Positions 479 through 64,000 of a DNA stretch of 64,000 nucleotides are shown here, piece by piece. The position numbers and the translations under genes are program-made. The DNA comes from an uncultured delta proteobacterium (GTDB taxonomy: Bacteria > Desulfobacterota > Syntrophia > Syntrophales > UBA2192), in NCBI GenBank assembly GCA_963810965.1, contig CAWEPT010000005.1:12244-76243 (forward strand), read 5' to 3'. Position 1 is the first letter of the stretch. Every line of letters begins with the position of its first letter. Below the pieces are notes generated by a model that did not search any database, was not told the origin of the DNA, and worked only from the letters and a program-made list of their open reading frames with translations.

Positions 479-1080
479 TTATGGGATCAGTTTCTTGTCG
501 CGAAGGGTCTTTACCACCAGGCTGACGAACCGGGAGATCTGGTCGTCGCTTCCGGAAGGGTTGACGGCATCGACGGTGGATCGCCAGACGATGGTCGTCG
601 TCTTTGCGTCGTAGAGCCTCGACTCCAAGGTTGCCGCTTCGCGCTGCCTCGTCATCGCCGGCCCGGGGCCGAACCATGGCACGTACGTCATCGAATTCAT
701 GGTGGTGTCTGTCGGCCCGGAGGTTACGACATCGGTTCCCATCCCCAGGACCCGCACGATCAGGTAGGCCTCGATTCCCATCCCCTGGCTCACCTTTACC
801 AGTTCCTCACGTGTTGCCTTGTCGGGGTCGGGGAAGTATTCATGGCACGTGGCCGCCTCGACGCCCCGCGACCTGAGCTGTTTGGCGAACTCGTTTTCGA
901 CAGGCCGCCGCATGTCGTCCTGCTTCGTCAGGGCGACGACCATGATCTTCTTGAAGGCCGGTCCCGTGTAGGTCGAGTTCCTCCAGTTGTCCGTCAGGCG
1001 CATGGGGAGGCGCAGGACAGGGTCAGCAGTGCCGCCGCAAAAAGCAGGAATCCCGATATTGCGATTTTCGTTTTGCTCAT
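479..1080 (-). pseudogene. putative lipoprotein, signal peptide out of frame with mature part
   Basis: Track ORF 479..1003 has no signal peptide. ATG at 1080 encodes MSKTKIAISGFLLFAAALLTLSC (lipobox) but stops at 996-994. The frames rejoin if one base is added to the GGGG run at 1004-1007. Confidence 0.55.
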
Positions 1081-1395
1081 GTCGCTCTTCCTTTCGTTGT
1101 GCAGACCGGTAACGAGTCCGGATTTGTCCTCAGTCCAGGTTTCCCTTTTCGGGTATCAGGCCATAACCCCGCTCCATTCTCTCTCAACTTCTTTTAGTGT
1201 ATCCCTGAAAATGAAAAACCCTGTCGCATTATAGTGGGCAGGGCATCAATGTCAATTTCAATTCGTAATCAGCCGTGTCTCTGAATCGAGATGTCATCGA
1301 ATCATGGGTGAAAGCGAGGAGCAGATGTCATCTATGATCAGTTCAGGAGATTGCCGATGATCCTCCCCGCTGCGTAGTAACTACTGGAGCATCGG

Positions 1396-1443
1396 GACAA
1401 AAAAGAGGATCGAGCCATGGTTGCCCGATCCTCTTTCGTTTTT
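1396..1443 (-). terminator. rho-independent terminator (possibly bidirectional)
   Basis: 11-bp stem AAAGAGGATCG (1402-1412) / CGATCCTCTTT (1426-1436). It is flanked by an A-run on the left and a T-rich run on the right, downstream of the - strand regulator gene. Confidence 0.65.
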
Positions 1444-1484
1444 GCCTTGCTTGTTGAGGTTGCCGGGCGGGACGCCCGGCCTGC

Positions 1485-1519
1485 AGCCCCTGAGCCCTGG
1501 ACCCTTGTCCCTAGTCCCT
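1485..1519 (-). repeat. tandem heptamer array, AGGGNNN x5 in - strand (mRNA) sense
   Basis: + strand reads agCCCCT gaGCCCT ggACCCT tgTCCCT agTCCCT. The stop codon of the 1511..3097 gene lies inside the array. A GC hairpin GCCGGGCG-gga-CGCCCGGC follows at 1462-1480. Confidence 0.8.
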
Positions 1520-3097
1520 ATGCTGTTTTTGTACGGGGCCCGCCAGGGCGGGGAAGGCAACCGTTTCCGATTCGCGGAAGGTGCCGATAAAGGCGTTGAC
1601 GACCTGCGGGTCGAACTGGCCGCCGCCGTTTCTGTGCAGCTCCGTTACCGCCTCGTCATGACTCATGCTCATCCGGTAGGGCCGGTTTGTCGTCATGGCG
1701 TCGTAGGCATCGGCCACGGCGATCAGGCGCGACAGCAGCGGGATCGCCTCGCCGGCCAGCCCGTCGGGGTAGCCGGAGCCGTCCCAGTTCTCGTGGTGGT
1801 GGCGGATGATCTTGCGCTCTTTTTCGAAAAGCGCGATCGGGGTGAGGATGTCATCGCCGATCGTGCTGTGGTTCTTGATGATGCCGTATTCCTCTCCCGT
1901 GAGCTCGTCGGGCTTGAGGAGGATGTGATCCGGGATCGCGATCTTGCCGATATCGTGGAGCATCGCGGCGATCTTGAGGCACTCGATGTCGTCGGGGGAG
2001 CATTGCATGATCTCGGCGGTCCGCACCACGAACTGCATGACGCTCTGGGAATGGCGTTCCGTGTACTGGTCCCGGGCCTGAATGGAGGTCACGAGCGCCC
2101 GGAAGGTTTCGGCGATATTCGTGTAGAGGGTCTCATAGAGGACCTTGTTTTCCAGGTTCAGCGAAGCGCGCCTCGCGAGGCTCAGGATGACGTGGAGGTC
2201 CTGATCCGAAAAACAGGCGCCGTTGCGGTCTTTCCAGAGGCCCAGGATCCCGAAGACGTTGTTGCGGATCATCAGAGGGGCGCAGAGGATGGACGCCGAG
2301 CCTTCAGCGTCGGAGACGTTGAACAGGACGCCGTCCCTTTTGCTCACGACCTCGCGGAGCAGCTCCTTCGGCCAGGGCATGGTGTGGCGCGGCGGGATCG
2401 GGTCGATGCAGCCGGTGATCTTGGGCAGGAACTCGTCGGTTTCCCTGTCGTAGAGCAGGATCGCGCAATGCTCCCCGTTCGAGACCTTGAGGGCCAGATC
2501 GGCGATGACGCGGAAGACGTTGTCGTTGCTCACCCCCAGGCGTTCGATGAAGTCGTAGATGAAGCCCGTGGCCGAGACCTGCCGGACCTTGTCGCGCAGC
2601 TTCTCCTGCTCCACCTTGTGCAGCAGGCCGTCGGCCGACAGGAGCGACTTCTCCCGCATGTAGATGTTCACCTTGTACAGAAGCTCGTCGATGCGGAAAG
2701 GCTTCGAGATGAAATCGACGGCCCCCGTCTTCATGGCCGAGACGGACAGGCCGACGGTGGGGTATCCGGTGATCATGATGACCGAGATCGTGGGGTGGAT
2801 CTCCCGGATCCGGCTCAGCAGATCCATGCCGTTCATGCCCGGCATCTGGATGTCGCTGATGACCAGATCGTAGAGATTGGACCGCAGCGCATCGAGGGCT
2901 TCCTTCCCGTCGGAAGCCTCGGTGGCGATGTAGTCGCCCTCGTGCCTCAGGGCCTCGACGATCAGGTTGCGTATGGATGCGTCGTCATCGACGACGAGGA
3001 TGGTCCTCTTATCGGACAAATTCGCGGGCATGACCCTGAATTCGTTCCTTGCGGTCTCCGTATCGTTCATTCCGATCATTCCGACAGCCCCACCCAT
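1511..3097 (-). CDS. response regulator, REC-GAF-HD-GYP (c-di-GMP phosphodiesterase type)
   Basis: Receiver (ILVVDDDASIRNLI...DLVISDIQMPGMNG), central GAF-like region, HD-GYP signature (MLHDIGK...HHENWDGSGYPDGL). The true start may be one of several downstream Met codons. Confidence 0.85.
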   Translation of the reverse strand: MGGAVGMIGMNDTETARNEFRVMPANLSDKRTILVVDDDASIRNLIVEALRHEGDYIATEASDGKEALDALRSNLYDLVISDIQMPGMNGMDLLSRIREIHPTISVIMITGYPTVGLSVSAMKTGAVDFISKPFRIDELLYKVNIYMREKSLLSADGLLHKVEQEKLRDKVRQVSATGFIYDFIERLGVSNDNVFRVIADLALKVSNGEHCAILLYDRETDEFLPKITGCIDPIPPRHTMPWPKELLREVVSKRDGVLFNVSDAEGSASILCAPLMIRNNVFGILGLWKDRNGACFSDQDLHVILSLARRASLNLENKVLYETLYTNIAETFRALVTSIQARDQYTERHSQSVMQFVVRTAEIMQCSPDDIECLKIAAMLHDIGKIAIPDHILLKPDELTGEEYGIIKNHSTIGDDILTPIALFEKERKIIRHHHENWDGSGYPDGLAGEAIPLLSRLIAVADAYDAMTTNRPYRMSMSHDEAVTELHRNGGGQFDPQVVNAFIGTFRESETVAFPALAGPVQKQHRD

Positions 3098-5440: not shown

Positions 5441-5450
5441 TCTTTTTTAC

Positions 5451-5488: not shown

Positions 5489-5490
5489 CG

Positions 5491-7814: not shown

Positions 7815-7886
7815 GGGACATGCTGAAAGAAGACGCACAAGAAACCGGCCCGGCCGGAGAATCGGCCTGCCGGCGACATCCAGGTT

Positions 7887-9084
7887 TTGCAGCAATCCTT
7901 CGAGAGCTTCACGGCGGCCACGATGAAGCTCCAGGAGGCCTTCTCGAATCTCGAGATCAAGTTCGAGAACCTCAACCGCGAGCTCGAACAGAAGAACCGG
8001 CGTCTCGAGAGCATCATTGCCGAGAAGGACGAGATGCGCAACTACCTGGAAACCATCCTGGAGAGCCTGACGACAGGGGTCGTCGTGACGGATCTTCAGG
8101 GGCGCGTCACGATGATGAACGGCTGTGCCGCCCGCATCACCGGAATGGAGCCGGGCGCTGCGGATCGAGAGCTTGCCGATCTCTTCCGGGGAGCCGAGGA
8201 GATGGACCGGGGCCGGGCAGGCTCCGCCCCTTCCCGGTACCTGCAGGGCAAGCGCAAGATCCGCCTCGGGGACAGCATCCTCGAGGTCCTGACATCCCCC
8301 GTGAAAACAAAAGACGGCAACAGCCTGGGGACGGTCCACATCCTGCTCGACGTGACCCGCGTCGAGAAGCTCGAGGAGATGGCCAAGCGCACCGAAAAAT
8401 TTGCCGCCCTCGGCGAGATGGCGGCCAATATCGCCCACGAAGTCCGCAACCCCCTGGGGAGCATCTCGCTGTCGGCCTCGCTTCTCCTCAAGGGCCTTGC
8501 CGACGAGAAGAACCGGGACCGGGCCGCGCGGATCATCCACTCCGTGAAGAGCGTCGACAACAAGATCGCGAACCTGCTGCTGTTCACCCGAAAGCCGGAG
8601 CCCCAGTTCCGGGATCTGCGGATCCACGACGTCCTTCAGGACATCCTCCGGTTTTCCGTGGAGATCCTGGAGAAGGAGGGAATCCGGCTCACCGTGCGCC
8701 TGGCAGGCGGCAGACCCGCTCGTGCGGGCCGACGGGGAGCTTCTGAAACAGGTGTTCCTCAACATCATCCTCAATGCCGTGCAGGCCATGCGGGGCGGCG
8801 GTGAGCTCACCATCGAGACCCGCCTGCACAACGACCCGGCGCTGAGGCCGGGCATGGAACGGAGCCTCGAGCTTCGCTTTGCCGACACGGGTTCCGGGAT
8901 TGCCGAGGAGGATCGCAGGCGGATCTTCGACCCCTTCTTCAGCACGAGGGAAAGGGGCAGCGGCCTGGGGCTCGCCATCGTGCACAACATCATGGATCTG
9001 CACCGCGGGACGGTCGATGTGGAGATGGGCGAGAAGGGCGGGAGCGTGTTTACCGTGCTGCTGCCGCTTGTGGAACCTGAATGA
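7887..9084 (+). pseudogene. PAS sensor histidine kinase (FlrB/FleS-like), frame-broken
   Basis: Fragments 7887..8804 and 8722..9084. H-box FAALGEMAANIAHEVRNPLGSI. ATPase boxes (LNIILNAVQA, DTGSGI, GSGLGLAIV) continue in the +1 frame. There is an extra base near 8712 (GGCGGC-A-GACCCG). Confidence 0.8.
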
Positions 9085-12079: not shown

Positions 12080-13737
12080 ATGGGTCAGCTTTTCTCGCAG
12101 ATGTGGAAGGGGTTTGAGTCCCTTCCCGCGTCCCGTAAACTCACCATCCTCGCGGCGGCGGGCATCACGCTTCTGAGCATCGCCCTTGCCGTCGTCTTCA
12201 TCAACCAGCCCGATTACAAGGTTCTCTACACGAACCTCTCCACCGAGGATGCCGGTCAGATCACGGCGCGGCTCCAGGAGAAGAAGATCCCCTACCAGCT
12301 CTCGCCCACAGGGGACATGATCTCGGTGCCTTCCGAAAAGGTGTCGGAGCTGCGGCTGGAACTGGCCGCCTCGGGTCTCCCCAAGGGCGGCGGCGTCGGG
12401 TTCGAGATCTTCGACGCGAAGAACCTGGGTGTGACCGAGTTCGTCCAGCAGCTCAACTACCAGCGCGCCCTCCAGGGGGAGCTCACCCGGACGATCAACA
12501 GCCTCGACGAGATCCAGCAGACCCGCGTCCACCTCGCGATCCCGAAGAAGTCCCTCTTCTCGGAGGACCAGAAAAAGCCCACGGCCAGCGTCGTCGTCCG
12601 GCTCAAGAGCGGGCGAAACTTGAGCGATCCGCAGATCCACGGCATCGCGCACCTCGTGTCGAGCTCCATCGAGGGGATGAGCCCCCGTGACGTGATGATC
12701 GTCGACTCGAGCGGGAAGGTCCTCTCGAAGGTCACCGAGGGGGGCGAGATGGCCCAGCTGTCCAACTCGCAGATCGAGTACAAGAAAAACGTCGAGAAGG
12801 ATCTCACGAGCCGCATCACCTCCATGCTGGAGAAGGTCGTCGGCGAGGGGAAGGCCGTCGTGCGGATCTCCACCGACCTGGACTTCCGGGTCACGGAGAA
12901 AACGGAGGAGAAGTACGACTCCGAGGAGCCCGCCATCCGCAGCGTCCAGCGTTCGCAGGAAAAATCGGGCGCCACCTCGGGCGGGGCGGGCGAAAGCTCC
13001 GTCGCGACGACGGCCCGGCAGGCGGCGCGCCGCCGCGGCCCGCCGGGTCAAACCGCGAGAAGTCCGACGAGACGATCAACTACGAGATCAGCCGCACGGT
13101 CAACAAGACCGTCATGCCCGTGGGCGACGTGAAGAAGCTCTCCATCGCCGTGCTGGTCGACGGCAACTACGTGAAGAGCGACAAGGGGGTCGAGGAATAC
13201 CAGCCGCGGCCCGAGAAGGAGCTGACGGCCCTGGAAGACCTCGTCAAGAAGTCCGCCGGCTTCGATGCCAAGCGGGGTGACCAGGTCGTCGTATCCAACG
13301 TGCCCTTCAAGAAAGTCGACCTGGGAACGGAGCTGGCGGAAAAGTCCTGGCTGGACAAGTTCATGCCCTTCATGCCGCTTGTCCGGTATCTCGTGATGCT
13401 GGTTGTGATCGCCCTGGTGGCACTCTTCGTCGCGAAGCCGCTCGTCCGCATGCTCGCGGAGCGGGGGCGGGAGGTGGAGGTATCCGTCCGGGAAGTGCCC
13501 GCCGGCGCGGGCGCGCTCAAAGGCGGCGACGGGGTGACGCTCTCTCTCGGCGCTCCTCAGCAGTCCCGCGAACTGACGGAGGCCGACATCGTGCGGCACA
13601 TGGCATCGGCGGATTCCAAGCGCTTTGCCGAGCTCCTGAGGAATTGGATCAAGTACAAACAGGGTCTAGGGTACAGGGGACAGGGTACAGGGGAAGAAAA
13701 GAGAGAAACCAGGCTCCCCGATTTCTGTCACTCTTGA
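12080..13737 (+). pseudogene. fliF: flagellar M-ring protein FliF, frame-broken, with repeat-encoded C-terminal tail
   Basis: Fragments 12080..13132 and 13114..13737. The conserved KSDETINYEISRTVNKTVMPVGDVKKLSIAVLVDG is in the second frame. Junction at roughly 12990-13060. The last ~25 codons read through the heptamer array at 13661-13695. Confidence 0.85.
13661..13695 (+). repeat. tandem heptamer array AGGGTAC x5
   Basis: agggtct agggtac aggggac agggtac aggggaa. Confidence 0.85.
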
Positions 13738-19716: not shown

Positions 19717-19751
19717 CAATGCCTTCGTCACAACCCTTTTGAGGAGTGAAC

Positions 19752-21117: not shown

Positions 21118-21168
21118 CGGAATCAGCGTCTTTGCGTGACGGCAAGACAAACCGGGAGGAGATCCACC

Positions 21169-26338: not shown

Positions 26339-26371
26339 GCCGGACTTTTACCCGTATCGCTGCTTGCGCTC

Positions 26372-36812: not shown

Positions 36813-36840
36813 TAAAGATTAAGGCCTGATCCGTCGATTG
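36813..36840 (+). promoter_or_regulatory. sigma28 promoter candidate
   Basis: TAAAGATT-N12-GTCGATTG. Weaker match than the other three sigma28 sites. Confidence 0.35.
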
Positions 36841-36928
36841 CATGAGCAGGGACTCCGGAAGAACCCTTCCGAAGGCCCTCGGTTGCTGCTGCCCAAGGGT
36901 AAACCGTTCCGGAGGAGGTGATCCGGTC

Positions 36929-45589: not shown

Positions 45590-46973
45590 ATGTCCGGAAT
45601 CTACCAGATCCTGAATACGGCAAAGGACGCCTTTCTCGCCAGCCAGATCTCCATGGAGGTGACGGGCTCGAACATCGCCAACGCCTCGACGCCCGGCTAC
45701 GTCCGGCAGCGGGCCGTTCTCGCTGCGAAGAGCCCCGGCGAGGTCGCCGGGAACGCGACGCAGTCCGGTGTGGAGATCACGACCATCGAGCGGCTCTACG
45801 ACCGCTTTATCGAGTTCCAGATGGTCGATCAGTCCTCGCAGGTGGGCGATGCCTCGATCCGCAAGGAAACCTTCGACCGTATCGAGGCCATCTTCAACGA
45901 GACCGACGGGGGCGGCCTCAACGATCTGCTGAACCAGTTCTGGACGGCCTGGGAGGACCTGTCGGCAAACCCCACGGGCCAGGTGGAGCGGACGGCCCTG
46001 GCGAACGCCGCAGACAGCCTGGCCACGATGTTTCGCGAGTACGCGGGCGAGCTCTACAGCATCCAGACCGACCTGAACGTACAGATCGAGGCATCGGTTA
46101 CCCAGCTCAACGGCTACCTCTCCGACATCGCCGACCTGAACGACAAGATCGTCCAGGGGGTCAGCGGCGGCGTGAACGTCAACAACCTCCTGGACCAGCG
46201 CTCGGAGCTGCTCAAGAAAACGGCCGGACTCATCGATATCCAGTATGTGGAGGAAACGGGCGGAGCCGTCAACGTCTTCACGGCCGACGGCAGGGCCCTC
46301 GTCCAGGGGAACTCGTCCTGGCAGCTCGCTGTCCGGGACAACGGCGCGGGCCTCTACGACGTCGTGTACGCAGACAACCCGACCGTTCCCATCAACGATG
46401 CCATCGGCGGCGGGAAGCTCTCGGGGATGCTCGGCATGAGGGACACGACCGTGGCGGGCTACCTGGCCGAGCTCGACGATCTCGCCGGGACGCTGATCAA
46501 CACCGTGAACGCCCAGCACGCCTTGGGCTACGACAACTACCGGAACGTGGGCGGGAACTTCTTCGAGCCCCTCGGCTCCACGGGGGCCCGGGACATGCAG
46601 GTGGCCGCCGCCATCCTGGACGATCCGAATCGAATCGCCGCGGCGGCGACCGTCAATGCCGACGGCGACAACGCCCGGGCGATCATGCCTCATCAAGGAC
46701 CAGGGCCTCATGAGCGGCGGCCTGTCCACCCTGGGGGACTTCTACGCCGCGCTGGTGGGGCAGATCGGCCAGGACGTCGCCGAAGCGGGACGGACGGCGA
46801 CCCACGAGGCGAGCGTCATGACCCAGATGACGAACGCCCAGGAGCAGCGCTCCGGCGTATCCACCGACGAGGAGATGATGAACCTCATCAAGTTCCAGAT
46901 GGGCTATTCGGCGGCGGCCAAGCTGGCCAGCGCGGCCGACGAGATGCTCCAGTCCCTCCTGGAGCTGGTGTAA
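45590..46973 (+). pseudogene. flgK: hook-associated protein 1 FlgK, one frame break
   Basis: Fragments 45590..~46690 and 46656..46973. N-terminus ILNTAKDAFLASQISMEVTGSNIANASTPGY. C-terminus SGVSTDEEMMNLIKFQMGYSAAAKLASAADEMLQSLLELV is in the +1 frame. There is an extra base at CC 46688-46689. Confidence 0.88.
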
Positions 46974-49697: not shown

Positions 49698-50576
49698 ATG
49701 GAAGGAATCAGAACAGCAATGGATCGGGCGCTGATCGCCGTCGAGCAGGCCAAGAGCCTCGATGGACACCGCGACGAAGCGGATCAGCACGGGCAAGAAA
49801 ATCAACGCCCCCGCCGACGACCCGGCCCGGTGGGCGGCTTCCCAGCAGGGACGCTCGATCGACGGGCATCTCCAGGCCGTCAACTCCGGCCTCGAGTCCG
49901 TCGCGATCAGCATCCGCGGCGCCGACAAAGCCATGGAGGCCATCGAAGAGCACATCGATCAGATGATCGAAACCGTAAAGTTCTTCCCGCCGTACCCCGA
50001 GGGGGACAATTCGGAAGAGCGGATCCGGATGCTCCGGAGCTTCAACGGGATCCGGCAGCTGATCGACCAGCTGACCATCCCGCCGAAGGACGACCTGGGG
50101 CAGGCGATCATGTCCGACCCCGCCACGAACCCGGAGGTGCCGGATTCGTGGCCGGTCATCGTCAATGAGCAGGGGGACGTCAAGACGATCGGGCGCCAGG
50201 AGGTCCACACGGGTCCCACGGGGCTCAACATCCCCGAGCATCACCGAGGCGGACATCACCGAGAACGGTCAGACCGGCGGCCCTCTGAGCCAGCAGAAGC
50301 TCGACGATATCGCGGCCAATCTCGAAAACGCCAAGGCCATCCTGAGGCAGCGCAGGGACGCCCTCGGCAGCGACGCGGCAGCCATCGGCCGGGCGAAGTC
50401 GTCCAATGAAAAGGCCGCCGCTTTTTACACAGTCCTACGCAGAGAACCTCGAGGCAGCCGACGTCAACGAGACGGCCGCGCAGGTGAAAAGCATCGAACT
50501 CAAACAATCCCTGGCCCTGGAGTCGCTGGGAAGCATCACCTCCCTGCGCTCGGAGCTGGTCGCGCTGCTGAAGTGA
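49698..50576 (+). pseudogene. divergent flagellin-family paralogue, 3 frame breaks
   Basis: Fragments 49698.., 49762.., 50165.., with the tail to TGA 50574-50576. Flagellin-N motif KRISTGKKINAPADDPARW and flagellin-C-like DVNETAAQVKSIELKQSLALESLGSITSL. Junctions at ~49761, ~50235 and ~50432. Confidence 0.65.
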
Positions 50577-51415: not shown

Positions 51416-54073
51416 TTATCGCCTCAAATTCATCGTTGCACCGAACAGCCGCTCCCCTGCCGGCTCCGGTCCGGCGATGGCGGGGTCGGGCCGCAGGCGG
51501 TCCGGGGCTGCCAATCCAGCAGGATCAGCAGTTGATCCGCCTGGTCTTTTTTCCCTGCCTTCCGCAGCTTCTCGATGACGGGAAGGATCTGGGAACGAGG
51601 CTCGAGTCCCGTCTCGTGAAGCCGCTGCAGGTACTCGGTGCTCCTTCCCGCGTGACCGGCCAGTGCGAAGCAAATGGCAAGAAGGCTCAGGGCAGGGGGA
51701 TAGTCCGGTTCCTTTTTTAAGAGTTTTTTCCGCCATCCTGATGGCCTTGCGGAGATCGCCTGCGAAGAATTCCGCGGCGGCGCAGTTCAGCAGGAGCTCC
51801 CTCGTTCCGTTCGCCTGACCGGCGGCCTTCCGGGCTTCCACGAGCGCCTCGTCGAAGCGATCCGCATTCAGGCAGGCATTGATGAGGTTCACGTAGGCCC
51901 GGCTCACATCCTGTGCCGGCTTGCCGTCGAGATATCTCCTCCACAGCCTGATCGCGTCGTCGTATCGGCCCAGTTCGCCTGCCTGGATCGCAAGCTCCAG
52001 GATCGCCCGGGGGGTGCCGCCCGATTCCTCGATCTTTTTCAGCCCGAGCAGATAGTAGCGCTCCCCCTTCTCGAGAACGCTCGCCCGGTCGAGCTTGCCC
52101 GTGTGATGGACCGGTACGTCGCATGCGGCGATTTTCATGCCCGCCTCGAGCATCGACGGCTCGACAAGCTCGTGCACGGCGCCGGAGAAACGGATCCGGG
52201 GGTCGTTCCGGAAAAGCCGCACCTTGCGGTTGGGGTACCAGCCCGTTCCGGCCTCTTCGTCGCGGTAGGAGCCGTCATTGGCCACCCACCCTGCGGTGTT
52301 TGCCTCGACCACGTAGTTCCGCGTGGTGAGATCATAGCCGCCGGTGCCTTCCGGGCTCTTTCGGATGAGGGCCCTGAGCCTTTCATGATCCCGGGACGAA
52401 ACGGTCTCGTCGGCGTCGATGACCAGGATCCAGTCGCCTGTCGCCTTGGACAGGGAGAAATTTCTCGCGCTGGAGAAATCCTCGTCCCAGGCGAAATCGA
52501 AGACCTTTGCCCCGAAGACGCCGCGATGTCCTTCGTGCGGTCCGTCGAGCCCGTGTCGACGACGATGATCTCGTCGACGGCGGCCTTGACGCTCGAGAGG
52601 CACCGGACGAGGTTGGGCTGCTCGTTTTTGACGATCATGCAGAGGGAAAGGGTTTCCCCTTTTGCTTTTTTCTTGATTTCCAGGGGACCGATTTTGTCTC
52701 GCACTTCCAGGGCGGCGGCGATGAACCCGTCGTCCACGTCGAAAGCTGCCATGGCGGCCTCGATCTCCTCCATCGCCGTCGGCGTGGTTTTCCTGCGAGA
52801 TGAGCAGATCGATCAGGAGGAAGGCGATGCGTGCGGCTTGACGGGTAGAGGCCCGGGCTTCGCGGAAGACGTTCTCCGCGCGGGCGAAGGCTCCGAGCGA
52901 CATCGCCGCCGCGTGATACCGGTCGGCAAGATCCACCACATGGGGCGAGAGGATGAATCCTTTTTCCAGGAGGTCGAAGGATTCGTCCCGCTCACCGGCC
53001 GTCCAGAGCAGGACGCCCAGGTTCGTCAGGGGTTCTCCCCAGGATGGATCGGCCTCGGCCGCCTTCTCGAAGTATTCTCTCGCCTGCTCTGCGGCGTTTT
53101 GCCTGAAGGCAAGGATGCCCTTGAGATTCAGCGCGGGGGCATGGACCTCGTTCATGGAAAGGGCCAGATCGGCAAGATTCCCGGCCTCCTCCAGCTCGTT
53201 CAGGCCCTCCCTGCACTGTCCTTCCAGCACCAGCCTGTCCGCGTCCCCGGATGCGACGGGGCATTGCCGGAGGGCATCGAGGGCATCCCCGTGTCGTCCT
53301 GACTGAATCAGCATTTGCGCAAGCTCGGTATAGTTGCGCTTGTCCTGGGGATCTTGCTGGATCGCGGAGAGGTACAGGTCTACCGCTCCCTTCACGTCAC
53401 CCCGCTGAGAGCTCTTCCAGGCCTGCTCCCGGGCCACGAGAGCCCGGATCTTCCGCCCCTCATGGGGCTTCTGCTCGATGTCACGCCACTTGTCATTGTA
53501 AATTTTTCGATTTCCCGTGAGGGAAGAGCCGTAGTCGATGCGGTTTCCGATGAAGCTGCGGCTCCCGAAGTGGTGGATGAAGACATCGCCTGCGATCACA
53601 TTCCGATAGCCTGCAAGGGCCGCTCTCGCGCAGAAGTCGTCGTCCTCGAAGTTCCCCGTGCCGAAGCTCTCGTCGAGCAGGCCGATCTGATCCACAAGAC
53701 TGCGCCTGAAGAGCATGCAGAAGCCAACGACCCGCCTGGTCTTCTGTGCGCCGATGACGGTTTTTCTCCCTGAAGGATCGGGCATAGCTTTCGAGGCCCT
53801 CGATGGCATCGTAGCCGACCCTGTCCACCTTCTGGACGGCCGCTGATGTTGTTTGTCATGGGTCCGACGATTCCGATATCGGGGCGTGCTTTTCAGGCAT
53901 TCCAGCATGCCCGAGAGCCACTTTTCGGTCACGACGACATCGTTGTTGAGAAGGAGGATATCGTTGCCCGTGGCGGCCTCGATGCCTTGGTTGCAGCCTT
54001 TCGCGAAGCCGAGGTTCTTGCCGTTTTCGATGAGTTTGTAGCTGGGTTCTCCTTGACGAGCTCTTTCAGCCAT
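51416..54073 (-). pseudogene. glycosyltransferase/TPR segment (GT2 C-part, TPR, GT2, TPR), several frame breaks
   Basis: GT2 motifs LLNNDVVV...EDDDFCARA, and LSLCMIVKNEQPNLVRCL..IIVVDTGSTDRT (in track ORF 52135..52773) joined to VIDADE. Garbage stretches at ~53600-53900, ~52500-52800 and ~51710 show frame hops. TPR repeats lie between the GT domains and at the end. Confidence 0.7.
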
Positions 54074-57000
54074 TTGACGGTTCCGTCCTTGGACCCGTTG
54101 TCGACGAAGATGATCTCATGGGGCTCCGGCGTGTGCCTCCGGATGCTCTCGACGCACTTCTTCGTGTACTCGAGCTCGTTGAACGTGAGGATGACGATGG
54201 ACGTGAGAGCGCGTTCCGGACGATCCGGTAAGGAGTTCGACTGATCCTTGGGCTCACGAGACTCGCGAATATCGAGCAACCGATCGTATACCCGGGCATA
54301 ATCTTCGATATTCTCTTCCATCGTCTTGAGGCGGGAATCCCGAAGGTTTGCTGCGACCCTTTCGAGCCGCGTTGGATCGTCCAGAATTTCCAGGAGCCTA
54401 GCCGCGAGGGCCTTGGCGTTTCCGGGAGGGACGAGAAATCCGGTCTCGCCGTCGACGATTCTCTCGCTGATTGCTCCGCAATCGGAAGCGATGACGGGGA
54501 TGCCCATCATCTGCGATTCGCTTGCGGTCAGGCAGAATGTCTCGTCCCATACGGACGGAATCATGACCAGGTGTGTCTTGGACAGCAGTCGCGGAAGATC
54601 GCTGCGTTCATAGAATCCGTGCTGGATGATGCCGAGTTCATTTGCTGTTTTCGTCAGTGAGGGGGGCACGCCGCCGAAAATCTCGAGTCGTATGGGCTTT
54701 CCCTTGAGAATCTTCGCCGCTTGCAGAAGAACGAAAACGCCTTTTCTGTCGCTTGCATTTCCGAGGAAACCCACCCTGAGAACGTTTCCGCGTTTCGCCT
54801 GCTGGCTCTTCTGCAGGGGTTCGATCCCGTGGGGAACGGTGACGATCCTGTCTTTTATCTCCTCTCCATGGGCCTGGATGAACCGTTCGCGCACAAAATC
54901 AGACGGGGCGACCAGGATGTCCGCCGCTTCGATGACGCGCTTGATAATTTGCTTTCGTTCGGCTAAGTAATCCCGCAGTAGCGACGGTTTGCCGGCCCCG
55001 TGATATTTGCGCTTTGTGCCGAGACAATACAGGCATTCGGCGTCTTCGCCGTCCGCAATGGTTTTCCCGCAGCGCCTCAGGTTCGGGAGGATCAAATTGT
55101 AATCGGGGCAGAGCAGGTAGTAATCGTGAAGAGAAATCAAGACCTTGAGGCCTTGATCCTTTGCGATGAGCGGCAGGAGCATGGAGCTCCAGCCGCCGAG
55201 ATGCTGGAAGTGAACGATTGAGGGACGACAGCCCCGCAGGAAGTTCGAAAAGATGGTTTCTACGTACTCGTTTGTCAAGTCTCCGTATATCTCGAGGAAG
55301 GAGTCGGTTACCACGACGGTCTCCTTGCGCAGCTTCAAGACGCGGAGATATCCGTTTACTTCCTTAGCCGCAAGATCGACCCACTGCTCGGGCAGGGATG
55401 CCGGGAACAAAACCGTGCTGTGAAACCGTGAAGACAGACCATCAATAATGTTTCGCGTGTGCAGTTCGGTGCCCCCCGGAGCATCAAAATTGTGAAGGAC
55501 GTGAAGCACGCCCGGCAAAAGAGGGTTTTCGAGCTCTTTGACTTTCCTGAAAATCCGTTCCTGGATCTCCCTTAAAGGATTGATGCAACAGAACCTGTAT
55601 ATTTCTTCCTTGTAGTTCGGCCATTTCTGTTCGAGCAGGCGCTCATTCAATTTGCGTTTTTCGCTGATCCGCGTGATGCTGCCGAAGGAAGCCTCCCCGT
55701 AGTGGTGAACATAGGCGTCGTCACAGCAGACGATCTTTTTCCCGGCATCCCGGGCGCGCATGCAGAAATCATTCTCCTCCCCGTAACCGAGGCCGAATGC
55801 GGGATCAAATGCGCCGGCGTTGTGCAGCGTGTCCCTCGAGATCAACATGCAGAATCCTACGCCGGTCGGGATCTCCGGGTAGGTTCTGCGCGACACCTCT
55901 GCGATCAGGGAACCGAAGCGATTCGTGTCTATCCCCTCCGGGAGAGTATTTGACTGGTTCATGACAGGGACGGAAAGAATCGTCGCATTGTTCGAAAGGG
56001 GGCACACGATGCCGATGTCCGGATGGCTGTTGAGGCAGCGGTGCATTCTGTCGAGCCAACCCTTTGTAACCTCCGTGTCGGAATTGAGAATGACGACGTC
56101 ATTTTCAGACAGTTCGAAACCGCGATTGACGTTGTGGACGAATCCTTTGTTTACGGAGGATTCGATCAGGCGGACCCTTGGATCTGCTTTCTCGAATGAT
56201 TTGAGTAGCGGCAGAACGCGGGAATCCGTGCTGCTGTCATCAAGCAGGTAGATGGCATGGTTGCCCTGCGTGTGGCGGAGAACACTGTCGATGCACCGCT
56301 GGAGATGCTCGAAAGCATTGAAGATCGGGATCAGAATGTCGCAGGACCTGTCAGGCGGGGCGACGTAATCCCCCGAAGCGTTGTTGGTCTTCGAACGCAT
56401 CGCGATCGATTTTATCCGGGAGGAAAGGAACGCGTCCACGCGATCCCTGATCTCTCGATCCGATCCCCCGGTCGGACTGCTGTTCCCTGATCGAGACGCA
56501 TCAGCACGGGAAACGTGCCGGGTTGTGTCGAACGTGCCGGACCCTTCATCTGTCAAGGGCCGAGGGGTGCACGTTGGAATCGATGCATCTTCTGCGGCTG
56601 CTTCAGGATTGGAAGGCGATGATTGTTCCTCTGCCATGCGCTGCAGAACCGAGAGGTTCTCTTCGGCTTGGGCATGACCTGGTGCGATGGACAGCACCCT
56701 GCCGTAGAAGAATCGCGCGTGGTCGAACTGTTTTTGCGTGGAGCAGATGTTTCCGATCCGAAGAAGCGTATCAACGTCATCCGGCTCGAGAGTGAGAGCC
56801 TTGTTGTAGTGGTTGAGCGCACGTTCGATGTCTCCTGTCTCCGCAAGGTACGCGTCGGCGAGGTCTCTGACGAAACGCAATACATCGGGCTGGAGTTGAA
56901 CGGCCCTATCAAGATGGAACAAGGCCTTTTCGATTTCTTTTTCCAGGCAATAAAGGTTCCCCAAATCGTTGTGAGCCCGGGCCTCTTCTGGATGGAGATC

Positions 57001-57174
57001 GAAGCAGGGTCTCGAGATTCTCGATTGCCCTGTCTGTCCGGCCGCGTCGCGCCAGAGACCTGGCCACTCGAACCAAGGCCTCGGGGTCGCGTTTATCCGA
57101 CACCTTTCCCTGCTCCTCCAAAGCGTCGAACATCTTTGCGGCGAGTTCATTCGCAGAATCGATTTCGAGGACAC
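53929..57174 (-). CDS. TPR - GT2 - GT4 - GT2(N-part) multidomain glycosyltransferase segment
   Basis: GT2 CDILIPIFNAFEHLQRCIDSVL..LLDDSSTD..ILNSDTEV. GT4 FLGNASDRKGV..IPSVWDETFCLTASESQMMGIPVIASDCGAISERIVDGETGFLV. Second GT2 start TSIVILTFNELEYTKKCVESI..FVDNGSKDGT. Both ends continue into the neighbouring track ORFs after a frame shift. Confidence 0.8.
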   Translation of the reverse strand: MSSKSILRMNSPQRCSTLWRSRERCRINATPRPWFEWPGLWRDAAGQTGQSRISRPCFDLHPEEARAHNDLGNLYCLEKEIEKALFHLDRAVQLQPDVLRFVRDLADAYLAETGDIERALNHYNKALTLEPDDVDTLLRIGNICSTQKQFDHARFFYGRVLSIAPGHAQAEENLSVLQRMAEEQSSPSNPEAAAEDASIPTCTPRPLTDEGSGTFDTTRHVSRADASRSGNSSPTGGSDREIRDRVDAFLSSRIKSIAMRSKTNNASGDYVAPPDRSCDILIPIFNAFEHLQRCIDSVLRHTQGNHAIYLLDDSSTDSRVLPLLKSFEKADPRVRLIESSVNKGFVHNVNRGFELSENDVVILNSDTEVTKGWLDRMHRCLNSHPDIGIVCPLSNNATILSVPVMNQSNTLPEGIDTNRFGSLIAEVSRRTYPEIPTGVGFCMLISRDTLHNAGAFDPAFGLGYGEENDFCMRARDAGKKIVCCDDAYVHHYGEASFGSITRISEKRKLNERLLEQKWPNYKEEIYRFCCINPLREIQERIFRKVKELENPLLPGVLHVLHNFDAPGGTELHTRNIIDGLSSRFHSTVLFPASLPEQWVDLAAKEVNGYLRVLKLRKETVVVTDSFLEIYGDLTNEYVETIFSNFLRGCRPSIVHFQHLGGWSSMLLPLIAKDQGLKVLISLHDYYLLCPDYNLILPNLRRCGKTIADGEDAECLYCLGTKRKYHGAGKPSLLRDYLAERKQIIKRVIEAADILVAPSDFVRERFIQAHGEEIKDRIVTVPHGIEPLQKSQQAKRGNVLRVGFLGNASDRKGVFVLLQAAKILKGKPIRLEIFGGVPPSLTKTANELGIIQHGFYERSDLPRLLSKTHLVMIPSVWDETFCLTASESQMMGIPVIASDCGAISERIVDGETGFLVPPGNAKALAARLLEILDDPTRLERVAANLRDSRLKTMEENIEDYARVYDRLLDIRESREPKDQSNSLPDRPERALTSIVILTFNELEYTKKCVESIRRHTPEPHEIIFVDNGSKDGTVKWLKELVKENPATNSSKTARTSASRKAATKASRPPRATISSFSTTMSS

Positions 57175-58279
57175 TCAGGTAACACTCGTGTGCCTTGGTG
57201 AAGTCTCCGGATTCTACCCGAATATTTCCTAAGGTCAGGAGGGTCTCCGTGTCCTGGGGATTGATCGACAGGGCCCGTTCATAATGTCGCACTGCCTCTT
57301 CGGGCCGTTTCATTGCCACGTAGCAGAAATCGGCCAGGTTTTTCCGGAACGTTGCATTTTCGGGATCGAGGGAAACGGACTTTTCGCAGGCGGCCAAGGC
57401 TTTCTCGGCGTTTCCCTGCTTGCCGTAGAGGACCCCGAGGTCATTGTATGCGGGGGCATAGTCCGGGAAAGACTCCACCAGCCGTTCGAGAGCGAAAGCG
57501 GCCTCTGCACGCTTTCCCTCGGTGACGAACAGTTTGATGATGCTCTCATGGGGCTCGACTGCTGGATGACTCTCGTGTGCGGATCGTGATTCCTGTGCCT
57601 CTGTGCAAATCTTGCCAGCGTCGTGATATTCTTTGCCCCGTTCAGCAACAATGGCATATGCCTCTTTCATTTTCTGCTGTTGTCCGGATGTCATCGTTGA
57701 GCCATCCTGACGCCAGGATACTGAACATGTCACAAGGGGAATATGCGCAAACTGGAAAATGCGGGACATTCGCATCCAAAGATCCCAATCTTCCAGTGAT
57801 TGAAGCGTCTCGTCAAAAAGACCCACGTTATCCAGACAGCTTCTTCTGTGCATGACGCACAGGACAGGAATAAAGTTTTCTCTCAAAATTCGCTCGTAAT
57901 CGAATTCAAACGAATAGGGCACTTCCTTCTTTATCGTGACGTATTTTCCATTTCGCATTTCCTGATATGTGCGATGAGCGTCGGTATAGGCAACTTGGTA
58001 TTCGGTCGATTCCAGGAAATTGACAAGGGTTTCGAGATGGTCGGGATAAAAAAGGTCGTCATCATCCAGATATGCAATATATTTTCCGCGCGCCGCCTTG
58101 ATCCCCTTATTGCGCGCCGCCGGAAGTCCCCGGTTGGTGTCGTGTTGCAGGCATCTAATGTTGTCGTTAGTGAGCCCCTCGAAGAGTTGACGAACGTCTG
58201 ATCCACCGTCGTTGATAACGATGACTTCATAGTATTGATAGGTCTGGCCAAAAATGCTTTTCAGGGCATTCATGAGCAT
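56909..58279 (-). CDS. GT2 - TPR segment (continuous with 53929..57174 after a frame shift)
   Basis: MLMNALKSIFGQTYQYYEVIVINDGGSD...YLDDDDLFYPDHLE, then TPR repeats. The N-terminal IVPTYNRPD is in the adjoining frame. Confidence 0.8.
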   Translation of the reverse strand: MLMNALKSIFGQTYQYYEVIVINDGGSDVRQLFEGLTNDNIRCLQHDTNRGLPAARNKGIKAARGKYIAYLDDDDLFYPDHLETLVNFLESTEYQVAYTDAHRTYQEMRNGKYVTIKKEVPYSFEFDYERILRENFIPVLCVMHRRSCLDNVGLFDETLQSLEDWDLWMRMSRIFQFAHIPLVTCSVSWRQDGSTMTSGQQQKMKEAYAIVAERGKEYHDAGKICTEAQESRSAHESHPAVEPHESIIKLFVTEGKRAEAAFALERLVESFPDYAPAYNDLGVLYGKQGNAEKALAACEKSVSLDPENATFRKNLADFCYVAMKRPEEAVRHYERALSINPQDTETLLTLGNIRVESGDFTKAHECYLSVLEIDSANELAAKMFDALEEQGKVSDKRDPEALVRVARSLARRGRTDRAIENLETLLRSPSRRGPGSQRFGEPLLPGKRNRKGLVPS

Positions 58280-59030
58280 ATCAGGACGGTTGTAGGTCGG
58301 GACAATAAGGAGACAAGTGGATTTTCACCGGAAATCGAGTATTTTTTCTGCGCTCTTTGTGCGGCAAGGGCACGCATGGCGTAATGCCGCTGTTCCGTTC
58401 CCTTCTTGCTGGAAATTGAGCATGGGCGTGATCTCCAATAGACGAGAGGCTCTCCTATGTTTGCAAGTTTGAATTTTTCAGACATTCTGAGAAACAGGTC
58501 ATAATCATGGCTGTAGTGATATCCTCGTCATACCCGCTAAGCGCCTCCAAAGCATCTTTCCGAATCATTACGGTGCTGTGGCCAAACCAGTTCTGGTCCA
58601 ATAATCGTTCCTGGATGGCATCACTGTCCGTTAGGACGTCGACGATCCGTTGAACTTCATGTATCGTCGATTTCGTGATAGGAGCTACCGACAAGAGCCA
58701 ATCCGGATGCGTTCAAGGATTCGAGATCTGTTTCAAGACGATGGGGCAGGGAAACGTCATCGGCATCCATAATCGCGATGTAGGTGCCCCGTCGCAGCTG
58801 CAGGGCTTTGTTTCGCGACTCCGGCGGGTCCAGAATTCTCGGGGTTCGTGAAAATCTTGATTCTCGGATCGTCAGCAGGCTGAGGATCCGGCGGTTTCAT
58901 CCGTTGACGCGTCATCAACGACGAGCAGTCGAAATTCGGGTACGTCTGTTTCAGGATGCTATGAATGGCTTCTTGAGAGAGGAAGCTCCGCATTGTGCGC
59001 AGCCATGATCACGCTGACAGCCGGGGATTC
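58270..59030 (-). pseudogene. GT2 glycosyltransferase segment, multiple frame breaks
   Basis: VSVIMAAHNAE, SQEAIHSILKQTYPNF, DDPRIKIFTNPENSGPA, GTYIAIMDADD and MIRKDALEALSGYDEDI are found in three different frames. No stop separates it from the next GT2. Confidence 0.6.
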
Positions 59031-59039
59031 CGGATGAAA

Positions 59040-60269
59040 GGGGATGGCGGCGTCCCAGGAATTCTGGTAATAACTTCCGCACCCTGGCATTGTGTCCTTT
59101 CAGGTAAACCAATCCACGATCATCGATGAATTCGTATAAATTCACGGTCGATGACATGCCGATAGAGTTTGCTGCTTGGAATGCCCACGAAAACGTTCTG
59201 CCAGGTCATGGTGGGCTTGATTTCCGAAAGGAGGGCGTCCGTTGCGGCGAGGTCTTCTTCGGTCTCCTGAGGGAGGCCGACCACGATACTGGCGGCGGTC
59301 TTGAAGCCGATTTCGTTGCAGAGCCTGAAGCTTGTTCTGATCTGGTCGACGGTGATCCCTTTGTGGAGTTCATCCAGGATTCTCTGAGAGCCGCTTTCAA
59401 CGCCGAAGTAAAATCCTCGAGCACCTGCCTTGTGCATCAGCTCGAGGAGTTCCCTGTCGAGGCTGTCGACACGGGACTCGCAGGCCCAACGGATATCGAT
59501 GTGTCTCTCCATCAGAAGCTTGCAGAATTCGACCACCCGCTTCCGATCAAGCGTGAAGTTGTCCTCGCGGAAGTAGATGCCTTTTGCCCCGTAGCGTTCG
59601 ACGAGATGCTCAATGTCGGAGACGATTCGCGCGGCACTGAAGCTCGTGTATTGTTTCCCCAGACTGCGCCGACGGAGCAAAACGCACAGCGGAAGGGACA
59701 GCCTCGGCTTGTCGTCATCGTGAACGTGGGCTTTTCGGGAAACCACAGCGCCTCCCAGTTATACGGGAGTTTCGTAAAGAGGTCCCAGGCCGGCATGGGG
59801 AGAGCGTCGAGGTCACGGATACGGGGGTATCGAACGACACGATCCTTGACCTTCCCTTCCACGATGTCGACGATCGCCTGTTCGCCCTCGCCTTGGACGA
59901 CGTGGTCGACGAAAGCCGGAATGGTGTCGAGGGCAACCGTGGTGTGCGGTCCCCCCACAATAATTTTCCCGTGCCATTGACCGCAACGCCTCAGATGTTC
60001 GATCTTATAGAGCATCCGTTGAGTGTCGCGAAAACAGATCGTGCTGACATAGATGCCGACATAATCGATACCGTTTGCCTGCAGATAACCCGATTCGAGA
60101 AAATTGCTGGGCCCCAGATAATTGTCGATGAAAAACACGTCATGCCCTGCTTTCTGAGCATCGAAAGAAGGAAACCGACGCCGAGCGGAGGTTTCTTTTC
60201 CCAGGTCGAAAAGGGGGTTTGCGAAGGAGCCGCAGACGTAACGAGGAGCACTCTTTTGCTGACTTTCAT
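59040..60269 (-). pseudogene. B12-binding radical SAM enzyme, at least 3 frame breaks (3' end uncertain)
   Basis: ATG 60269 (MKVSKRVLLVTSA...). B12-binding-like N-domain. TSRGCPFRCAFCSV cluster motif. Continues as ..QYTSFSAARIVSDIEHLVERYGAKGIYFREDNF in another frame (missing base in a G-run at ~59665). Confidence 0.75.
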
Positions 60270-60608
60270 TGGGCTATTATCCTTGGCTTTACAATGTGTT
60301 AGAAGAGTCACACCCATGCCCGCCATGAAGGTCCCGCATTCCGGCACTGCGACTTCGCTGAAGCGATTTCAGAAACGCAGAACATCCGCCGACTAGGGTA
60401 AACGTCCGATATTTTGCACGTTATGTGCCAGCGGGGGCGCTGCGAGTGAGCCTGCCCGTAGGGCTGCTCCCTGCAGTCTGCCATGGCGAAGGAACTGGCG
60501 GATCAGACGCTGCCTGCATATGCGAGGGCGTGAGGGTGTAAGGATATCCGCCGTGCATCCGCAAAGACGGATGGGCAGCAGAGCATCAGGTTGCAGATCG
60601 ATCGTTTG

Positions 60609-62462: not shown

Positions 62463-63116
62463 ATGGCGAAAATGTTTTTTTCCACGTCCGAGGTGGCCGA
62501 TCTCTTCAACGTCAACCGGGTCACCATCTACCGCTGGGTGAAAGAGGGGACGGTAAAGGGATACAAGGTCGGTAAGCATCTCAAGATCCCGCTGGTGGAG
62601 GTCGAGCGGCTCAAGCGGGAGTTCGGCTTCGGCGATATGTCCCTCGAAAAACTGCAGGGGGCAGACTTCGGGGCGACGGAGGCCGGCAAGACGGCATCCA
62701 GGGGGCCGTCCCAAAAGAAACTCGTCATGGCCATCGACGACGACGAGAACATCCTCACCTTCATCGAGAACGCCTTCGAGGGACTGGGGCTCAACAGGCA
62801 CTGCACCCTGAAAACCTACGCGAACGGGCTCGAGGCGGTCCTGCACATCGGCGAGGAGAAGCCGGATCTGATCCTGCTCGACATCGTGATGCCCAACCTC
62901 AATGGTCTCGAACTTGCAGAAAAGATCCGCAAAATGCACCGCGACATCCAGATCATCATCCTGACGGGGTACCCGGAGTATCTCACCGAGGACGAGCGGG
63001 GCAAGTTCCTCGACTACATGACGAAGCCCGTCGATGTGAAGAAGCTCTATGACACGATCGTAAAGGCCCTCGACATCCCTGCCGAGAGGATCAACGGAAT
63101 CCAGGCGCGCTCTTAG
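62463..63116 (+). CDS. response regulator with N-terminal excisionase-type HTH
   Basis: FSTSEVADLFNVNRVTIYRWVKEGTVKGYKVGKHLKI, then a receiver (LVMAIDDDENIL...DLILLDIVMPNLNG...KPVD). Confidence 0.8.
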   Translation: MAKMFFSTSEVADLFNVNRVTIYRWVKEGTVKGYKVGKHLKIPLVEVERLKREFGFGDMSLEKLQGADFGATEAGKTASRGPSQKKLVMAIDDDENILTFIENAFEGLGLNRHCTLKTYANGLEAVLHIGEEKPDLILLDIVMPNLNGLELAEKIRKMHRDIQIIILTGYPEYLTEDERGKFLDYMTKPVDVKKLYDTIVKALDIPAERINGIQARS

Positions 63117-63232
63117 ATTCAGCGATTCAGCAGGCCGGGCGCGGGTCCCGGCCTTTCGATTCAAACGGGTTTGGTTCGAGCGGAGTCTCGATCGGGATAC
63201 AGCTTCAAGGGATACAAGGAGGCAATCAGGCG

Positions 63233-63748
63233 ATGCAGACGGAACTGATGGAAAAACAGGAAAGCACCCTTGCCGGGATCCCGGGAAGGGAGGGAAAATA
63301 TCTGACGTTCTCGCTTGCCGGCGAGGAATACGGGATCGGGATTCTGAAGGTCAAGGAGATCATCGGGATGATGGCCGTGACCCACGTCCCCCAGACCCCC
63401 GGTTTCGTCAAGGGCGTCATCAACCTTCGCGGCAAGGTGATCCCCGTCGTGGACCTGCGGCTTCGGTTTGCCCTGGAGGCCGCGGCCTACACGGAGCGCA
63501 CCTGCATCATCGTCGTGGAGGTGGCGGGGGCGAACGGCTCCGTCATGATGGGGATCGTCGTCGATGCCGTCTCGGAGGTGCTCAACATCCGGGGGGCCGA
63601 CATCGAGAACACGCCCACCTTCGGGGTCAAGCTCAACACGGATTTCATCCTGGGAATGGCCAAGGCGGCAGGCGGGATCAAGATCCTGCTCGATATCGAC
63701 AAGGTGCTCAACAGCGAGGACCTCGTCGCGATCCGCCACATGGCCTGA
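63233..63748 (+). CDS. cheW: chemotaxis coupling protein CheW
   Basis: YLTFSLAGEEYGIGILKVKEIIGMMAVTHVPQTPGFVKGVINLRGKVIPVVDLRLRF. Confidence 0.93.
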   Translation: MQTELMEKQESTLAGIPGREGKYLTFSLAGEEYGIGILKVKEIIGMMAVTHVPQTPGFVKGVINLRGKVIPVVDLRLRFALEAAAYTERTCIIVVEVAGANGSVMMGIVVDAVSEVLNIRGADIENTPTFGVKLNTDFILGMAKAAGGIKILLDIDKVLNSEDLVAIRHMA

Positions 63749-63777
63749 GGATCAATACTGTTGCGAGAGGTGTAAGT

Positions 63778-64000
63778 ATGAAGAAAGTGTCTCTGTCAAC
63801 GAGAATCGTCTGGTTGTCATCGCCGTCTTTACGGTCGGCGCGTGTCTGTTCGCGAGCACCTATTACTTTGTGAACAGGGTTTCAGGATCAGACGCAGCAG
63901 GAAATCGCGAGGCAGGCCGACGCCGTGCAGCTCCACGTCGACGACGTAACAGCGAGAAGGTCGCCGCGGCGAAGCTGACGGCATCCCGGAAGGTCCTTGC
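63778..64000 (+). pseudogene. probable methyl-accepting chemotaxis protein, 5' fragment with frame breaks (continues beyond window)
   Basis: ATG 63778 after GAGAGG. MKKVSL.. is followed by a TM-like VVIAVFTVGACLFASTYYFV in a shifted frame, and further shifts occur downstream. Identity is inferred mainly from its position after cheW. Confidence 0.3.

Follow-up and report, generated by a model that had tools for sequence, protein, structure and literature searches.

Pseudogene-rich reductive genomes such as those of Mycobacterium leprae and Sodalis glossinidius carry mixed lesions (nonsense codons, deletions and insertion sequences), show relaxed selection and keep their essential genes intact. 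Programmed +1 frameshift sites, for example that of prfB, occur singly, depend on a motif and are conserved among relatives. Indel-induced gene fragmentation is a documented failure mode of noisy long-read assemblies and metagenome-assembled genomes (PMC9262707; 10.1101/2021.08.23.457338). PacBio errors are insertion-heavy, and locally heterogeneous regions cannot be polished (10.1101/2021.08.23.457338).

The window, as we call the whole 64,000-nucleotide stretch analysed here, holds a flagellar gene cluster with many frame breaks. As in M. leprae and S. glossinidius, a large fraction of the genes is interrupted (~25%), whereas here the lesions are only small indels, dN/dS is normal and gyrB is broken. 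As in prfB-type +1 frameshifting, a +1 shift is needed for the full protein, yet the sites here are numerous, lack any common motif and are confined to one assembly. Noisy long-read assemblies (Nanopore R9 or PacBio CLR) likewise have conserved genes split genome-wide by single-base indels, a problem that worsens at low coverage and in unpolishable regions and is detected by comparing protein length with relatives (the IDEEL idea). In a Nanopore consensus the typical error is a deletion in a homopolymer, while here insertions dominate and three quarters fall outside homopolymers, a spectrum closer to insertion-heavy PacBio CLR reads or a very low-depth consensus. Judged from sequence comparison, the frame breaks are very probably consensus errors of the deposited assembly rather than mutations in the organism.

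Materials and methods

The genome is metagenome-assembled and belongs to a Syntrophales bacterium (1.5 Mb in 34 fairly long contigs, 68% complete). It was compared with four genomes of the same genus (~94% identical) and two public metagenome contigs. Split genes were sampled on 9 of the 34 contigs, the one with the flagellar window and eight others. Gene calling was guided by GC3, greedy longest-ORF calling having taken many antisense ORFs in this 61% G+C DNA. A patch of flgE with too many frame switches for tblastn was analysed by a three-way nucleotide alignment of the window, relative G013 and JGI contig L084. The polarity of indels in variable regions was read from one or two references and the integrity of their reading frames. 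A reference-free GC3 phase test of each indel was noisy where indels cluster, and no conclusion rests on GC3 phase.

Results

Comparison with intact same-genus orthologues showed a change of reading frame within at least 16 genes of the window (Table 1), and it located all the break sites that a sequence-only reading of the window had listed. That list was incomplete, missing 7839 at the kinase start, 21066 at the 3′ end of fliK and 36879 in the 136-aa gene, and its estimate of about seven sites in flgE was too low, the three-way alignment giving 12 sites and 15 extra bases. It had described the breaks that it could resolve as +1 or -1; the resolvable window breaks are nearly all insertions and no even mix of the two. 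Short homopolymers, which it had named as the setting of several breaks, do contain some (GGGG at 1003-1006, CCCC at ~59657) and account for a minority overall, most inserted bases being unlike both neighbours. The flagellar genes that it had called intact are so: about 28 in the window are free of breaks when set against relatives.

The structure of several broken genes could be followed in single relatives. A tblastn search with the 202-aa homologue of the lipoprotein-like gene (G014) matched frame -2 over residues 1-26 and frame -1 over residues 26-200. In G013 the glycosyltransferase/TPR gene runs in one frame for at least 3420 aa, and the B12-binding radical-SAM gene is one 744-aa frame in G015. 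At the fliF break the relatives themselves are one codon apart, and the MCP gene has further breaks immediately past the window end.

Table 1. Genes of the window that are split between reading frames, with the positions of the breaks
Gene	Coordinates	Strand	Break
Lipoprotein-like gene	479..1080	-	signal-peptide and mature parts in different frames; junction 1003-1006 (GGGG)
Histidine kinase (HisKA + HATPase_c)	7821..9084	+	extra bases 7839-7841 and 8705-8710; +1 relative to 4/4 relatives at both
fliF (M-ring)	12080..13656	+	frame break 13025-13036; net +2/-1 relative to relatives
fliK (hook-length control)	19746..21139	+	extra bases 19848, 21066
flgD	21136..21834	+	three extra bases: 21505, 21632-21639, 21681; frame back after the third
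flgE (hook)	21875..23418	+	485-nt patch 22481-22964 with 15 window-only bases at 12 sites; flanks clean
fliP	26336..27106	+	extra base 26359-26360 cuts the start off from the gene body
flhA	29747..31817	+	one extra T at 29953, turning GAATTC into GAATTTC
flhF	31822..32992	+	one extra base, 32079-32080
Conserved 136-aa gene, unknown family	36838..37249	+	extra base 36879; first ~15 codons out of frame
Second FliK-like gene (Flg_hook domain)	37899..39045	+	extra A at 38868
flgK	45590..46973	+	extra base at ~46686
Flagellin paralogue	49698..50576	+	extra bases 49755, 50239, 50431
Giant glycosyltransferase/TPR gene	51416..58279	-	broken up into ORFs (885, 1081 and 456 aa); indels 51721, 52519, 52781, 52829, 52851, 53740, 53838, 53881, 54045, others upstream
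B12-binding radical-SAM gene	58787..60359	-	at least 3 frames; junctions ~59657 (CCCC) and ~60140
MCP start (Cache + MCPsignal)	63774..64000	+	garbled 63874-63958

Set against the close genomes, a check that the sequence-only reading had itself proposed, nearly all breaks proved to be single extra bases private to this assembly. At 7839, 8705, 26359, 29953, 32079, 36879 and 38868 the window has one base more than all four same-genus genomes, and the lesions are absent from the close relatives and public contigs compared. A public short-read contig, ~96% identical to the window in DNA, encodes an intact 689-aa FlhA whose protein is 100% identical to the 611-aa flhA frame that follows the break in the window; only two coding indels separate this contig from the window, the extra bases in flhA (29953) and flhF (32079-80). 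Similarly, the 15 extra bases of the flgE patch are found in the window only and in neither of two independent intact alleles (G013 and L084). These alleles diverge from each other by 7.4% in the patch and 3% in its flanks with no frameshifting indel between them, while the window differs by substitutions at 8.4-9.7% in the patch. Searches with FlhA and FlgE and one metagenome scan found no public sequence of the same strain (>99% identical), the nearest being ~96% identical; the FlgE search and the scan gave further intact alleles, ~93.5% identical, from other strains. A 611-aa FlhA in another assembly, considered as a shared break, was rejected, as it results from a different insertion 14 nt away with use of the same downstream start codon. 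Mostly +1 breaks also occur in flhB, flhA, flgF and flgG of Contig_57346, from another ENA assembly of long-read style and a related species.

The damage extends well beyond the window. Split genes number 8-9 per ~35 in this genome, well beyond chance when set against 0-3 per 34-40 between relatives. Of the relatives' genes, 8/36, 8/40, 9/44 and 3/13 lay in more than one frame on three other contigs, and five further contigs had 24 of 95 orthologues split. The eight other sampled contigs all carry comparable lesions, which split roughly one orthologous gene in four. Alignment of 104.6 kb of coding DNA revealed 129 frameshifting indels; outside the flagellar locus the density was similar or higher. 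The genome's only gyrB (contig C22) lies in two frames, and thyX, a gatA-like amidase (three frames), purD, parB, lptC and meaB are also split. No break was found in rpoB and rpoC (8.3 kb), an outcome with a probability of about 0.1-0.3 at the 0.13-0.26 breaks per kb of conserved DNA.

The spectrum of these lesions fits sequencing error better than mutation. Single-base events in coding DNA comprised 66 insertions and 24 deletions, and in 50 of the 66 insertions the added base was unlike both neighbours; on contig C17 the insertion bias was weak (17 versus 11). We found no motif around the insertion sites, where information content equalled sampling noise. A systematic error at a methylation motif, considered on account of GAATTC at the flhA site, was rejected because no motif is common to the sites. 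Neither large deletions nor insertion sequences were found as lesions, and checking turned up no in-frame nonsense codons, in agreement with the sequence-only reading. Downstream of breaks dN/dS was 0.13-0.32, compared with 0.04-0.27 in intact genes, the sole higher value being 0.77 from 7 changes in the 92-codon tail of flgK.

The indels were clustered, with 45% of neighbour gaps below 100 nt where a Poisson model predicts 12%. As had been noted from the sequence alone, the clusters lie in variable loci: breaks occurred at 0.26/kb in conserved and 1.75/kb in variable parts (p = 5e-8), making them about seven times denser where relatives vary, in the flgE middle domain, flagellin and the glycosyltransferase island. 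Mismatches were twice as frequent within 30 nt of an indel, and a smaller proportion of them fell at third codon positions.

Discussion

We favour consensus errors as the source of the frame breaks because the extra bases are private to one assembly, occur genome-wide and in essential genes, and have a spectrum unlike that of natural mutation. The sequence-only reading had already preferred indel errors, in a consensus built from long reads or at low coverage, to evolutionary decay, a preference now supported by the uniqueness of the breaks, their genome-wide spread, the hit in gyrB, the spectrum and purifying selection. The consensus would then carry stray single bases, mainly insertions, at about 1/kb of coding DNA. 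Errors would be fewest in conserved sequence, where reads of co-occurring relatives, or polishing data, could back the consensus, and would pile up in naturally variable patches such as the FlgE middle domain, flagellin and the glycosyltransferase island. The source data were probably noisy long reads at low coverage, and the clustering probably stems from poor polishing of variable regions; its best explanation is that these regions were unpolishable or that strains were heterogeneous, the latter a possibility raised in the sequence-only reading too.

It is very unlikely that the frameshifts are true mutations of a recent pseudogenisation, a genome decay that includes loss of flagellar motility, even though the breaks are genuinely present in the sequence, the assembly is small (1.5 Mb), less conserved and accessory genes are more densely broken, and rpoB and rpoC are intact as if decay had spared essential genes. 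The only gyrB, thyX, the gatA-like amidase and purD are broken as well, and eight other contigs are damaged at least as much as the flagellar window. In bacteria, mutation favours deletions and slippage in homopolymers, whereas nearly all the lesions here are insertions of one base outside homopolymer runs, unaccompanied by nonsense codons, large deletions or insertion sequences; the flgE patch, with 15 insertions in 485 nt and few surplus substitutions, does not follow a natural pattern. True pseudogenes would be expected to show dN/dS rising towards 1 past the breaks and mixed kinds of lesion with essential genes spared. Here dN/dS past the breaks stays at the low level of intact genes, and neither relaxed selection nor such a mixture with sparing was found. 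Programmed recoding, in which +1 ribosomal frameshifting, transcriptional slippage or quadruplet decoding would read the genes through, would account for the predominance of +1 breaks and for the conserved peptide picking up at once in the next frame. It is nevertheless extremely improbable, given that the sites share no slippery sequence or motif and are conserved in no relative, that all relatives' frames are uninterrupted, and that up to 12 sites in 485 nt of one gene are incompatible with programmed shifting.

Another account would keep the genes intact and have the assembler merge alleles of co-existing strains in hypervariable loci into a chimeric consensus, with the patches reflecting microdiversity. 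We regard this as possible, if tentative. Public metagenomes contain several species of the genus (94-96% identity), break density is about seven-fold higher where relatives differ from one another, mismatches are enriched beside indels, and the flgE patch is a naturally variable domain (7.4% versus 3% in the flanks between two intact alleles). It fits less well with the isolated extra bases in highly conserved flhA, flhF and gyrB, which have no variation nearby, and with the small substitution excess in the flgE patch (8.4-9.7% versus 7.4%). A chimera of this kind is a sub-case of the artefact reading, and separating it from low coverage would take the reads. It is unlikely that some clustered breaks mark real within-population allele diversity, or even strain-level inactivation, at surface-exposed flagellar loci; were that so, the error patches would map the hypervariable motility antigens (FlgE middle domain, flagellin paralogue and flagellin-glycosylation island) of an uncultured syntrophic bacterium.

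Returning to consensus errors, the breaks are almost certainly an assembly artefact and not a real biological feature, and the finding serves mainly as a quality warning: spurious bases split roughly one gene in four of this genome. Gene calls, the completeness estimate (68%), pseudogene counts, pangenome and metabolic inferences and claims of lost motility drawn from this genome would be wrong, and other findings built on genes that look truncated, fused or unusually short need comparison with same-genus relatives before they are believed. Neither the early pseudogenisation of flagellation once entertained for this locus nor a loss of the flagellum finds support; the window is no more damaged than the other contigs. 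The flagellar cluster looks complete and under purifying selection, and the organism is best read as flagellated.

Frame breaks in the flagellar cluster

The genome under study (1.50 Mb in 34 contigs, 61% G+C, 68% completeness score) was compared mainly with four same-genus genomes, G013, G011, G014 and G010, whose DNA is ~94% identical to and syntenic with the window. Further comparators were G009 (~80% identical), G015 for the 58.7-64 kb part, and two public metagenome contigs, one k141-named with flhA and flhF (L029) and one from JGI with flgE (L084). Public records label the FlhA and FlgE homologues Syntrophales or Syntrophaceae. Pfam scans bore out the gene names of the sequence-only reading and gave the order flgC, fliE, fliF, fliG, fliH, fliI, fliJ, fliK, flgD, flgE, fliL, fliM, fliN, fliO, fliP, fliQ, fliR, flhB, flhA, flhF, MinD-like flhG, fliA, a second FliL, a FliK-like gene, flgF, flgG, flgA, flgH, flgI, a rod-binding protein, flgM, flgN, flgK, flgL, two flagellins, flbT and flaF, followed on the opposite strand by an island in which a giant glycosyltransferase/TPR gene lies together with one for a B12-binding radical-SAM protein.

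A tblastn search of the window with relatives' genes, called by their strong GC3 signal, and a nucleotide indel census against the relatives recovered every break site listed by the sequence-only reading, plus others at 7839, 21066 and 36879. For flgE the broken interval held, but not the estimate of about seven sites, as 12 sites carry 15 window-only bases. The genes named as intact proved to be so, and the segments tested contained no in-frame nonsense codon.

Frame breaks and GGGTNNA arrays (window positions)
Feature	Position	Strand
Lipoprotein gene, break	~1004	
Kinase gene, break	8705-8710	
fliF, break	13025-13036	
fliK, break	19848	
flgD, breaks	21505, 21632-21639, 21681	
flgE, breaks	22481-22964	
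fliP, break	26359-26360	
flhA, break	29953	
flhF, break	32079-32080	
FliK-like gene, break	38868	
flgK, break	46686	
Flagellin paralogue, breaks	49755, 50239, 50431	
Glycosyltransferase gene, breaks	51721-54045	
Radical-SAM gene, breaks	~59657, ~60140	
MCP start, break	63874-63958	
GGGTNNA arrays	13662-13693, 27403-27433, 28276-28306, 35435-35467, 39366-39403, 42820-42850	+
GGGTNNA arrays	1487-1518, 5450-5489, 13744-13767, 19661-19692, 29700-29730, 39573-39619	-

At every site aligned in all four relatives the window is longer by one base. Across flhA and flhF, L029 differs from the window at 4% of bases, and the sole coding indels between them are the window's two extra bases; 3' of the flhA break all differences are synonymous, leaving 611 residues of protein 100% identical. 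The flgE lesions are confined to one 485-nt patch, the remainder of the gene having none, and all 15 odd bases are private to the window against two independent intact alleles, which are 7.4% apart in the patch with no frameshifting indel between them.

Frame damage across the genome

The flagellar locus is not special within its genome in frame damage. Three other 20-kb pieces (contigs C17, C27 and C16) carry the same private indels, chiefly single extra bases, with 8/36, 8/40, 9/44 and 3/13 of relatives' genes in more than one frame, compared with 0-3 of 34-40 genes between relatives. When the genes of one 394-kb G010 contig were placed on the whole genome, 24 of 95 orthologues on five further contigs were split. 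The aligned coding DNA, 104.6 kb in all, contained 129 frameshifting indels (~1.2 per kb), a density no lower than the window's. Genes broken outside the window include HlyD, ABC and MlaE transport components, meaB, an oxaloacetate-decarboxylase beta subunit, lptC, thyX, a gatA-like amidase (three frames), purD, parB and a CdaA-like cyclase. No break was found in rpoB and rpoC, which is not improbable at the rate of conserved DNA. The only gyrB lies in two frames (residues 1-706 and 699-805).

Origin of the breaks

A cell would not be expected to survive with its only gyrB frameshifted, which directly disfavours the breaks as real mutations. Genuine pseudogenisation of flagellation, the other reading offered from the sequence alone, is thus left without support and very improbable, given the genome-wide damage and the low dN/dS. 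Against G013, dN/dS 3' of the breaks is 0.155 in flhA, 0.13 in flhF, 0.32 in the kinase, 0.175 in fliF and 0.20 in both fliP and the FliK-like gene, with 0.04-0.27 in intact genes; purifying selection has therefore persisted on the out-of-frame parts for nearly all of the 5-15% synonymous divergence. Programmed recoding can be excluded for practical purposes, since the 13 positions around the sites hold no more information than sampling noise, which also rules out a motif-specific systematic error.

Natural bacterial indels are biased to deletions and homopolymer slippage. The spectrum here is the opposite, with 66 insertions to 24 deletions among coding single-base events, and the inserted base is unlike both neighbours in 50 of the 66. 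Indels cluster (45% of neighbour gaps are <100 nt, 12% expected), and close to them mismatches are twice as frequent, with a smaller proportion at third positions, as poor-consensus patches would give. Together with the private insertions, their genome-wide spread and gyrB, spectrum and dN/dS support the reading initially favoured, that the breaks are very probably consensus indel errors.

An independent case is Contig_57346 (ena:ERZ25039502), which belongs to a different ENA assembly, of a related species (~80% identical): similar breaks, mostly +1, occur in its flhB, flhA, fliR, flgF and flgG, and pdxA is also split. The flhA insertions of this contig and of the window are 14 nt apart, which explains how the two assemblies come to share a 611-aa FlhA that begins at one downstream start codon. 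Public protein collections therefore contain truncated proteins from error-laden long-read assemblies of this group.

Crowding in variable regions

The breaks do crowd in variable loci, as had been remarked: their density within the window is 0.26 per kb in parts aligned to three or more relatives at >85% identity, versus 1.75 in parts so aligned to just one or two (p = 5e-8). Genome-wide, ~45% of genes <94% identical are split versus 11-15% of more conserved genes, a partly circular comparison because a break itself depresses measured identity. On the simplest reading, conserved stretches would be backed by more data at consensus or polishing, and strain-specific variable stretches would retain raw long-read noise. 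The variable patches resemble the locally heterogeneous regions that cannot be polished described in the proovframe preprint, which quotes an insertion-heavy PacBio error profile with 8% insertions, 3% deletions and 2% substitutions (10.1101/2021.08.23.457338), and Sereika et al. report that low-coverage long-read bins need polishing, else genes are fragmented (PMC9262707). The dense patches may stem from low depth alone or from a mixture of strains.

Repeats, hook segment and glycosyltransferase island

Intergenic spacers of the cluster hold arrays of seven-base period on both strands, of the form GGGTNNA (e.g. GGGTACAGGGTAAAGGGTTCAGGG), which match the canonical G-quadruplex pattern; ~40-nt stretches of them recur at many places in relatives' genomes. 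A dispersed ~120-nt repeat (284-402 and 41955-42075, one copy between flgA and flgH) recurs at 80-88% identity on numerous contigs in every same-genus genome searched, and resembles a small mobile or REP-like non-coding element.

The fliK-flgD-flgE segment (19500-24400) is ~81% identical to G014, G010 and G011 and 92% to G013, while its flanks are ~94% identical to all four, a pattern suggestive of allele exchange, or of a divergent hook module common to G013 and the window. FlbT and FlaF (50581-51343; strong Pfam matches, 1.4e-41 and 1.7e-27), flagellin-synthesis regulators known best from Alphaproteobacteria, are here encoded 3' of the flagellins in a Syntrophales cluster. The glycosyltransferase island differs strongly among species of the genus. 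Its glycosyltransferase/TPR region (51416-58279, minus strand) is in G013 (C150 47422-57684) an unbroken frame of at least 3420 aa running off the contig end, suggesting that a giant multi-domain GT2/GT4/TPR protein adjoins the flagellins, with flagellin glycosylation as a possible role.
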